DNA of 63,364 bases, filler included, from Reclinomonas americana ATCC 50394 (taxonomy: Eukaryota), in assembly GCA_048213135.1 (NCBI GenBank). It is 16 parts of 16 records of this genome, joined end to end, with 100 filler letters (N's around TTAATTAATTAA, not from the genome) between each part and the next. Parts side by side here need not be neighbours in the genome. Positions count along the whole stretch, not along the records: positions 11,720 to 14,310 come from AFZH01017694.1; positions 14,411 to 24,296 come from AFZH01017695.1; 14 more parts are not named here. The stretch is one strand, 5' to 3'. Below, piece by piece: positions 12,799-14,991 of the stretch. Below the pieces are notes generated by a model that worked only from the letters and a program-made list of their open reading frames with translations, ran no database searches and was not told the origin of the DNA. The position numbers and the translations under genes were made by a program. Position 1 is the first letter of the stretch; each line of letters begins with the position of its first letter.

Positions 12799-14991
12799 CT
12801 ACCCGGTGATCGAGTGCGAGCCGAGACCCGATACAGTGTCGACGTTGAACTGATCCCACTCCGTCGCCAGCGTCGCGAATGTCGATGGATTCGTCGTGAC
12901 GCCCGAGAGGACAGACGACTTGCGGCGCAGCGTCTTGTCGACCGTGGTGAATGAGCCGGAAGTCCACGAGGTACTGGGTCTCTGTCCAATGACGCCGAAG
13001 ATGTCGACGTACGCCGACGTAGACTTCTTCCAGATGGCAACAGCGTCATCGCCGTTGTAATTGATGACCGTGCTATTCACATACGACGTAACGCCGGTCG
13101 GCAGTGTCAGTGCGGCCGACGAGTTGCGAATCACGAGAATTCCTCCCGACGCCAACGATGTTGAGGGCAAGCCAGAAAGCGTCGACAGCTGCAGAGTTTG
13201 TGTTGCAGTGGACGCGCCATTGGTGAACAGCCTCAATTCGTAGTTCGTGAGGTCCGCAGCGGAGGCGCTGTTGTTGTAGATTTCCAGGTACTTGTTGTTG
13301 CTGGTGCCCTCGACGTATTCGGAGATGAGCAAGTCGCCGACGGTGCAGGAGCCGCACGATCCGCCGCAACCGTCACTGCCGCACGTCTTGCCGGTGCAAT
13401 TCGGGGCACATACGCATTGGAACGACGAATTGCACTGTGTGTTGGCTCCGCACGTGCCACACGATCCGCTGCAACCGTCGTCGCCGCACGACTTGCCAGC
13501 ACAGTCCGGCACACACTCGCACTGGAACGATGCATTGCACTGCATGTTGGCTCCGCACGTGCCACACGATCCGCTGCAACCGTCGTCGCCGCACGACTTG
13601 CCGGCACAGTCCGGCACACACTCGCACTGGGACGACAAGTTGCACTGCTGATTGGGACCGCACGCGCCACACGATCCGCCGCATCCGTCGTCACCGCACG
13701 ACTTGCCGACACAGTCCGGCACACACTCGCACTGGAACGACGACGTATTGCACTGCGTGTTGGCTCCGCACGCGCCACACGATCCGCCGCACCCGTCAGT
13801 GCCACACGACTTGCCGGTGCAGTTCGGCACACAGCAGCTGCCGCTGACATTGAGAGTGTAGATCTGACCGCTGTACACACTCGCCACCACCTTCGTGCCG
13901 TCGGCGCTGGAGGCCACCGCAAACCAGTTTCGATTCGAGTCGCGAGCCGTCCATGTCACACCCGCGTCGCTCGACGTGTACATCTTGTCGTTGCCGACCA
14001 CCGCCACCAGCTTCGACCCGTCGCTGCTGGAGGCCACCGACCGCCACAGTCGCGCCGACTCGCGTGCCGTCCATTTCGCACCAGAGTCGGTGGAGGTGTA
14101 GATCTGGCCACCGTGAGTGACGGCCACCAGCTTCGCACCGTCGCTGCTGGAGGCCACACCGACCCACGGGCGATTGGCGTCGCAAGCCGTCCACGTCGCA
14201 CCCGAGTCAGTGGAGGTGTAGAGCGCGCCGTCGCGCACAGCCGCCACCAACTTGGTGCCGTCGCTGCTGGAAGCCACAGCAACCCACTGGCGATGCGACT
14301 CACGTGGCGTNNNNNNNNNNNNNNNNNNNNNNNNNNNNNNNNNNNNNNNNNNNNTTAATTAATTAANNNNNNNNNNNNNNNNNNNNNNNNNNNNNNNNNN
14401 NNNNNNNNNNCCACGACACACCCGAGTCAGTGGAGGTGTAGATCGAGTCGCCGACGGCCACTGCCACCAGCTTCGAGCCGTCAGCGCTGGAGGCCACCGC
14501 CGACCACGCTTGCGTGGAAGCGCGCGGCGTCCACGTCGCGCCCGAGTCGGTGGAGGTGTAGATGTTGCCGTTGCAGTAGACGCACGCCACCAGCTTGGTG
14601 CCGTCGGTGCTGGAGGCCACACTGACCCAGTAGCGATTCGACTCGTGCGGCGTCCATGTCGCACCCGAGTCGGAGGTGGTGTAAATGCGGCCGAACTCGA
14701 CGACGGCCACCAGCTTGCTGCCGTCGGCGTTGGAGGCCACCGACCACCAAATGCGCTTCGACTCATGAGCAGTTGCGGCAGTCGGTGCCGCACACGTGGT
14801 CCCTCCACCTGGTTATCAGCAATCGCCAGTCATGATGAGGTTGCAGAGAAAGAGAATGCACCATCATGTGCATGCAAAAAAACGCAACGGACGGTGATGG
14901 ACGTGTCGTGAGCGTGGACAAGCGCCGAGGCGCACACCAGCGCCAGCACGAGTACCACGAGCACACTGGTCCAAGTTGTCTTCCGGCTCAT
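12799..14991 (-). CDS. Secreted multidomain protein, paralog A: signal peptide + 7 BNR/Asp-box-like propeller repeats + Cys-rich repeats + lamin-tail (LTD) domain
   Basis: MSRKTTWTSVLVVLVLALVCASALVHA, single intron 14888-14809. Seven ~40-aa repeats W-x-x-VASSxDGxKLVA…IYTSTDSGxTW, then ~4.6 CVPDCAGKSCGDDGCGGSCG repeats. C-terminal DLLISEYVEGTSNNKYLEIYN…NGDDAV…VDIFGVIG…TLRRKSSV…EW…LGSH. Confidence 0.88.
13345..13835 (-). repeat. Coding tandem repeat, ~105-bp unit (35-aa Cys-rich module)
   Basis: CAGTCCGGCACACACTCGCACTGG-type units recur at ~105-108-bp spacing. Confidence 0.9.

Follow-up and report, generated by a model that had tools for sequence, protein, structure and literature searches.

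A predicted secreted propeller, Cys-repeat, and lamin-tail protein of Reclinomonas americana belongs to a module-swapping gene family with bacterial-type domains

Gene A, encoded on the minus strand of the stretch of Reclinomonas americana DNA analyzed here (63,364 nucleotides with filler, hereafter the window), is one member of a large module-swapping family in its own genome and not a lone import. Its propeller, Cys-rich repeats, and lamin-tail domain (LTD) seem to come from different sources, and the host most likely put the three together itself. Reasoning from sequence, we lean toward the view that the product is a host-assembled, secreted, unanchored, and noncatalytic adhesin or coat protein with a head-stalk-tip layout and two binding ends.

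The gene runs from an ATG start codon at 14991 to a stop codon at 12801-12799. Exon 1 (14889..14991, 103 nt) encodes a signal peptide whose hydrophobic core has a mean hydropathy of 2.58, against at most 1.16 for all other segments, and matching exons occur in the paralogues. Next come a phase-1 spliceosomal intron of 80 nt with the donor GTTGCGT (14809..14888) and exon 2, whose 5' part (14411..14808) encodes a linker and propeller blades 1 to 3. A strandless scaffold gap of 100 N (14311..14410) then separates contigs C2228 and C2227; gene A is split over contigs and lies whole on no single one. The four blades beyond the gap, 4 to 7 (13840..14310), belong to the constant "type A" propeller and are supported by the AF2 model of a paralogue on contig C140. 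They are followed by a stalk of 4.6 Myxococcota-like Cys-rich repeats of 35 aa (13342..13839; five motifs, the last one partial, with 39 Cys in 167 aa) and by a bacterial ExeM-type LTD of about 180 aa with the stop codon (12799..13341). The visible coding DNA after the intron amounts to 1,907 nt (14808-14411 plus 14310-12802), and propeller, Cys repeats, and LTD are intronless, with an open frame of 503 aa. The paralogue contig C9521 extends 48 nt beyond the gap point, and 40 of these 48 match the start of the 3' part; since C9521 crosses the gap position in register, the gap holds no hidden coding DNA in that frame and has zero coding length by the paralogue frame. The layout described in the earlier note, from signal-peptide exon, intron, and long intronless exon to seven propeller repeats, roughly 4.6 Cys repeats, and C-terminal LTD, is confirmed.

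No transmembrane or GPI-like anchor was seen in the protein by hydropathy, and the product is predicted on that basis to be secreted and unanchored. It carries 10 N-glycosylation sequons. A CxxC in blade 2 (14600-14625), kept in all 15 type-A propellers, is possibly a loop disulfide. A Pfam scan of the ORF recognized no catalytic domain, nuclease domains included, in line with the earlier remark that none was visible.

A tandem copy, paralogue B, starts at 12152 on the same strand and is roughly 90% identical to gene A. It comprises a signal-peptide exon (12059..12152), a phase-1 intron of 87 nt (11972..12058), and propeller blades 1 and 2 (11720..11971), cut by the gap at 11620-11719. In the genome as a whole, the 3' part of gene A has at least 123 matches, alleles included, a lower bound and not a copy number; 85 of 592 candidates were scored. 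The assembly contains two haplotypes about 94% identical (C3452 versus the window, and paired HSP70 loci), and family counts are therefore inflated up to twofold. Full type-A propellers occur in 15 distinct versions, each of 272 aa without indels, with the blade-specific face residues kept in all of them. C-terminally, this propeller meets a stop, an EGF array, an EGF array and then a 14-blade propeller, knottin-like or TNFR_c6 modules, or Cys repeats with LTD; upstream, at its one phase-1 5' border, it meets a signal peptide, Big_9, the Ig-like exon of C89, or the unrecognized exon of C482. Propeller, Cys repeats, and LTD stand together on four contigs (C2227, C9521, C3453, and C9451, with five or three Cys motifs); the simplest reading is one tandem pair present in each of two haplotypes. 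The Cys-LTD cassette is found on six contigs: four have it after the propeller, and two (C2697 and C2698) have it after an EGF array, in genes of a type that, at other loci, finishes with a 14-blade propeller.

Several further genes illustrate the modules at hand. The C140 gene (L134:5030-8607) combines a signal peptide, Gly_rich_2, a DUF7382 Ig-like domain, two Big_9 domains, and a type-A propeller, and its module borders are marked by phase-1 introns. Very long genes on C2884 and C2886 alternate 7- or 14-blade propellers with EGF arrays, one unit per exon. On C482 and C170, the type-A propeller is joined to TNFR_c6 repeats, and genes close by fuse a DUF2135-like bacterial domain to EGF arrays. 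C2697 (L133:1100-6185) has a multiexon N-terminal region upstream of EGF-Cys-LTD; this region is without Pfam matches, and parts of it resemble what we take to be H-type lectin repeats. Blades of propellers other than type A vary mainly at positions 1 and 17-18, with entropies of 2.7 to 3.6 bits (196 blades). Their face dN/dS of 0.56, which is saturated and uses face sites picked from the same data, does not show positive selection on these faces.

We propose that each module would have reached the host on its own from bacteria, with a virus as a possible carrier of the propeller. Once the signal peptide is cleaved, the constant propeller may bind a single unchanging partner, probably the surface or matrix of the cell itself; the Cys repeats, rich in disulfides, would serve as an adjustable spacer that sets reach, and the LTD would be one interchangeable tip that binds an external polymer, e.g., a bacterial surface, DNA, or a substrate. 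In other members, the tip would be a 14-blade propeller with a variable face or a set of knottin-like or TNFR-like Cys repeats, or would be lacking. The family would then serve as a combinatorial set of adhesins or coat proteins, and its variety would stem from tandem duplication, from the exchange of cassettes within exons, and from recombination in phase-1 introns. A prey-binding role for gene A is plausible.

As to which end anchors, we infer by analogy that it would be the propeller. In Bdellovibrio, the fibres of the mosaic adhesive trimer (MAT) are described as having a constant N-terminal domain and swapped tips (PMC10769870), and gene A would share with them the design of constant N-terminal domain, stalk, and swapped tips. 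Some bacterial carriers of the propeller have weak MAT_N matches and S74 domains. In contrast, gene A lacks MAT_N, beta-helix, and S74 and gives no sign of trimerisation, and PMC10769870 makes no mention of a propeller. Membership in MAT was rejected, as the propeller follows the signal peptide and no NF053851 match was obtained in the host LTD, Cys, and paralogue-propeller pieces; the likeness is to be read as analogy, not membership.

Rather less probably, the protein could be a structural part of a cell coat, cyst wall, scale, or extrusome, in which such proteins would be cross-linked with each other and with host glycans and would recognize no prey. The high Cys content, the sequons (10), the lack of an anchor, the constancy of the type-A face, and the great length of the C2884 and C2886 genes, in which propellers and EGF arrays alternate, would all suit such a role, whereas the variable faces of the other propellers and the interchangeable tips suggest diverse ligands and the bacterial relatives resemble adhesive fibres. 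We regard the structural role as unlikely, and a binding protein of the head-stalk-tip kind as the better account.

The propeller itself is a generic one in fold. In the AF2 model of the C140 type-A paralogue, seven 4-strand blades are predicted with a pLDDT of 95.6, and known structures that match it are generic 7-blade propellers at 11 to 21% identity. With this model and a BNR match above the cut-off in the C140 paralogue (28.9 versus 27), the propeller belongs to the BNR/Asp-box group; the halves in the window, taken alone, match BNR and sortilin under the cut-off. The earlier remark that such propellers are typical of bacterial and some giant-virus surface proteins was borne out, with relatives found in bacteria and in giant-virus metagenome-assembled genomes (MAGs). 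Bacterial (cellular or unnamed) majority blades are 91 to 94% identical to host blades. The blades are homogenised, and donors were compared by scaffold identity, not by a tree: identity to the host majority blade reaches 0.95 in the best cellular or unnamed row and 0.94 in the best viral ORF, with a median of 0.82 in both sets (109 cellular or unnamed and 44 viral rows). Further, 72 viral loci, some of them in giant-virus MAGs, lie at about the same distance from the host propeller as the cellular ones, and the host propeller appears no closer to bacterial fibre-like proteins than to viral ones. Cellular relatives are joined to collagen, S74, or tail-collar domains, and 9 of the 44 propeller carriers scanned gave weak Bdello_MAT_N matches, all under the 60-bit cut-off.

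Might the type-A propeller instead be a secreted enzyme of sialidase-, GH74-, or YCF48-like fold, with the LTD as its binding module? Blade-specific charged residues are fixed across the 15 paralogues, and a fixed face would be expected of an active site no less than of a binding site; there are also weak sequence matches to a sialidase and GH74 (E values of 0.02 to 0.04) and a partial match to the NF045728 glycosyl hydrolase (80 bits versus a cut-off of 175). However, the blades are near-identical repeats, closely like the bacterial majority blades, and the fold matches generic propellers, at the low identities given above. An enzymatic role is improbable in our judgment, and we retain the noncatalytic binding protein.

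The LTD of gene A belongs to Pfam PF00932 (E value of 1.4e-12; 48.4 bits versus a gathering cut-off of 34.3), and lamin tails are the top Foldseek matches to its model, which has the lamin Ig-like fold. The model aligns with lamin B1 (Z of 8.1, rmsd of 3.4, 107 aligned) and with BT_1938 (Z of 9.7, rmsd of 3.5, 163 aligned), and its identity to lamin tails is 13 to 19%. Two named candidates were rejected. A nuclear lamin does not fit, as a signal peptide, propeller, and Cys repeats replace the coiled-coil rod and the C-terminus is not CaaX; the ExeM nuclease (NF033680) does not fit, as the match scores 99 bits versus a cut-off of 1300 and covers profile positions 25-175 only, in an ORF with no nuclease domain.

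The Bacteroidetes-like character that the earlier note had given the LTD did not hold. The five best GTDB loci are all Planctomycetota, at 64 to 69% identity over about 175 aa, versus at most 57% for the closest Bacteroidota and 60% for Cloacimonadota. In a quick maximum-likelihood IQ-TREE run on 107 rows chosen by similarity to the query, the six host copies form one clade (SH-aLRT of 98), sister to five Planctomycetota and one unnamed row (support of 93), and a row close to this group falls in a cluster that includes a Terrimicrobiaceae member. On this tree, the LTD is placed as nested among PVC bacteria, closest to Planctomycetota/Verrucomicrobiota; the donor of the module is recent and well placed. 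One distant LTD locus was found among viral contigs.

In large secreted planctomycete proteins, the domains neighboring the LTD are ones that we take to be EEP-like and S8-like. The LTDs of such Pirellulales proteins (EEP-like, LTD, and S8-like; PF00932, and the N-terminus of NF033680) share motifs and fold with that of gene A, whereas gene A has neither nuclease nor protease and carries its LTD at the C-terminus, after a propeller and Cys stalk, in an intron-bearing gene. An anchoring role has been proposed for an LTD protein in a study of freshwater planctomycetes (PMC6461901). In ExeM, the LTD is dispensable for DNA clearing, and the ligand of bacterial LTDs is an open question (PMC6085458). 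Non-lamin LTD proteins are known in eukaryotes; those described in PMC5630835 share with gene A an LTD without a coiled coil and a eukaryotic host.

For the Cys repeat, four of the five named matches are Myxococcota and one is Proteobacteria, at 40 to 62% identity; two other named matches, from Marinifilum and an unclassified bacterium, concern the LTD rather than the Cys repeat. The top Atlas clusters are likewise Myxococcota, on weak scores, and the myxobacterial type assigned in the earlier note stands. The repeat has no match to a curated family in Pfam or NCBIfam, a search for viral relatives found none, and its structural models are poor (pLDDT of 49 to 67). Cys-rich repeat surface proteins of Myxococcota have the same 35-aa repeat without the propeller and without gene A's LTD subtype, and in the bacterial-like P0135 and P0238 the Cys repeat is paired with a different LTD subtype. 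Five motif screens for an outside protein that combines the modules gave no match (0/238, 0/145, 0/80 GTDB loci, 0/79 metagenome loci, and 0/44 viral ORFs), a result bounded by length, word, and clustering limits and not proof of absence. Among the papers listed by literature searches, none describes the gene A architecture; a supplementary table of PMC5630835 may list similar ones.

It is conceivable, and in our estimate quite doubtful, that a bacterium or virus not yet sampled supplied the whole propeller-Cys-LTD exon as a single gene, the parts of which then seeded the family. Joins without introns, similar GC3 across the modules (0.81, 0.77, and 0.77), and the existing pairings of Cys repeats with another LTD subtype fit a single import. 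Yet the nearest relatives of the modules fall in different groups, the type-A propeller is common to many genes without Cys repeats and LTD, the Cys-LTD cassette also stands behind an EGF array, and the combination is absent from all five screens. Of the earlier reading as a horizontally acquired or module-shuffled gene with a host intron, the bacterial-type modules and host-type intron stand; a single imported gene gives way to assembly within a large module-swapping family.

Gene A is a real host gene because of its intron, its intron-rich neighbors in both haplotypes, and purifying selection. The GTTGCGT donor lies at an identical position in the paralogues, and the motif occurs 39 times in the window versus 15.7 expected, a count reached in 0 of 100 shuffles. 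Donors of this class also follow non-G exon ends in HSP70 genes, where they were recovered without RNA prompting by an aligner whose bonus for them equaled that for GTR donors. An intron-rich MCM-family gene, recognized by eye, lies on contig C2228 together with the 5' half of gene A. In the second haplotype, C3452 matches the window (14557-24278) at 94% identity over 8.9 kb and ends within the 5' half of gene A, and the next-numbered contig, C3453, bears Cys repeats and LTD; a search for a link between C3453-C3456 and the window on its Rab side gave no match. The paralogues are under purifying selection, with dN/dS of 0.065/0.365 = 0.18 for the 15 type-A propellers (0.19 at face sites) and 0.075/0.231 = 0.32 for six LTDs.

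The window also holds a divergently oriented neighbor (16190-17979, plus strand) whose motifs may be those of a GT-B fucosyltransferase. Farther on, and read by eye from ORFs, are a SAM-methyltransferase-like gene (45458-46897, plus strand), a P-type ATPase with long exons (46977-50900, minus strand), and a kelch/vWA-like gene (54679-58929).

The assembly includes bacterial contigs (C1, C2, and C12384), which comprise megabase contigs with intronless Bacteroidota-like genes and one GC-rich fragment, suggesting that the culture was grown with bacteria. The only copy of thymidylate synthase found in the assembly is on C1; a eukaryotic one may be missed through introns. These contigs encode LTD proteins of their own (6 of 14 LTD matches), and gene A does span a gap, but a contaminant or mis-join, the outcome that the earlier note had named against itself, is very improbable given the spliceosomal intron, the contig shared with the MCM-family gene, a second haplotype that stops in the same 5' half with a Cys-LTD contig next, and the failure of the co-assembled bacterial LTDs to pass the 140-column alignment filter.

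How the family was put together may be read in part from its introns. Seven border types are all phase 1 in models drawn from DNA alone and partly by eye: signal|propeller, EGF|propeller, signal|Gly-rich, Ig-like|Big_9, Big_9|Big_9, Big_9|propeller, and C89 Ig-like|propeller. Of the introns within the C140 Gly-rich domain, one is phase 2 and another is ambiguous. For a baseline, seven HSP70-family loci were aligned with splicing allowed, and 48 introns resulted; of these, 17 outside 55-110 nt and 3 repeated positions were dropped, leaving 16, 5, and 7 in phases 0, 1, and 2 (n = 28). The phase-1 share is 7/7 for border types versus 5/28 (Fisher p of 1.2e-4), with only about four of the seven borders independent; for about four, the p value by hand is ~0.001 at the 5/28 baseline and ~0.015 at a 35% baseline. 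The 32 EGF|propeller borders are copies of one border; all have GT after the first base of a Gly codon, a position fixed by the search pattern, and automatic acceptor choice gave phase 1 in 22 of 27 resolved (5 of 32 unresolved). Gly-rich borders favor phase 1 via proto-splice sites, as stated in a review (PMC8001218). Reuse of one exon border with four partners is a stronger sign of shuffling than the phase excess. A phase-1 border excess with exon reuse, the signature of class 1-1 shuffling, is present at the family level and is missing at the internal joins of gene A, where no intron separates propeller, Cys repeats, and LTD. These joins are therefore not visibly products of exon shuffling; either the cassette was joined on through recombination inside the exon, or introns once present have disappeared.

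A 12-residue insertion in EF-1alpha marks opisthokonts (animal/fungal). The host EF-1alpha (C7876) is without this insertion, which is present in the aligned mammalian chains, and class 1-1-like shuffling therefore probably arose here apart from animals. A search with the host HSP70 gave plants as the best named match (79%), below unnamed rows at 87% and 82%, and no close relative with a name. With metazoan class 1-1 exon-shuffled extracellular proteins (PMC8001218), the family shares secreted EGF-rich mosaics, phase-1 border introns, and exon reuse. It differs in that the host modules are bacterial-type, the exons are often multidomain, the EF-1alpha insertion is lacking, and the internal joins of gene A are intronless. 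Exon-shuffled modular proteins are practically absent outside animals according to that review (PMC8001218), and a genome survey reports exon-domain alignment also in some protists and ties the 1-1 excess to metazoans (PMC6547436).

We tentatively raise the possibility that a non-opisthokont protist independently evolved class 1-1 shuffling together with in-exon swaps and combined surface modules taken from three or more lineages of prey or viruses into a prey-capture adhesin repertoire convergent with MAT, of which gene A would be a planctomycete-LTD-tipped member. If true, this would be a clear 1-1 system outside opisthokonts and would test whether the 1-1 bias follows from secretion itself. 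Gene A offers a setting free of catalytic domains for asking what bacterial LTDs bind. The significance is carried more by the family than by gene A alone: it would be a case in which a eukaryote took up bacterial surface modules one by one and recombined them into a new family of extracellular proteins.
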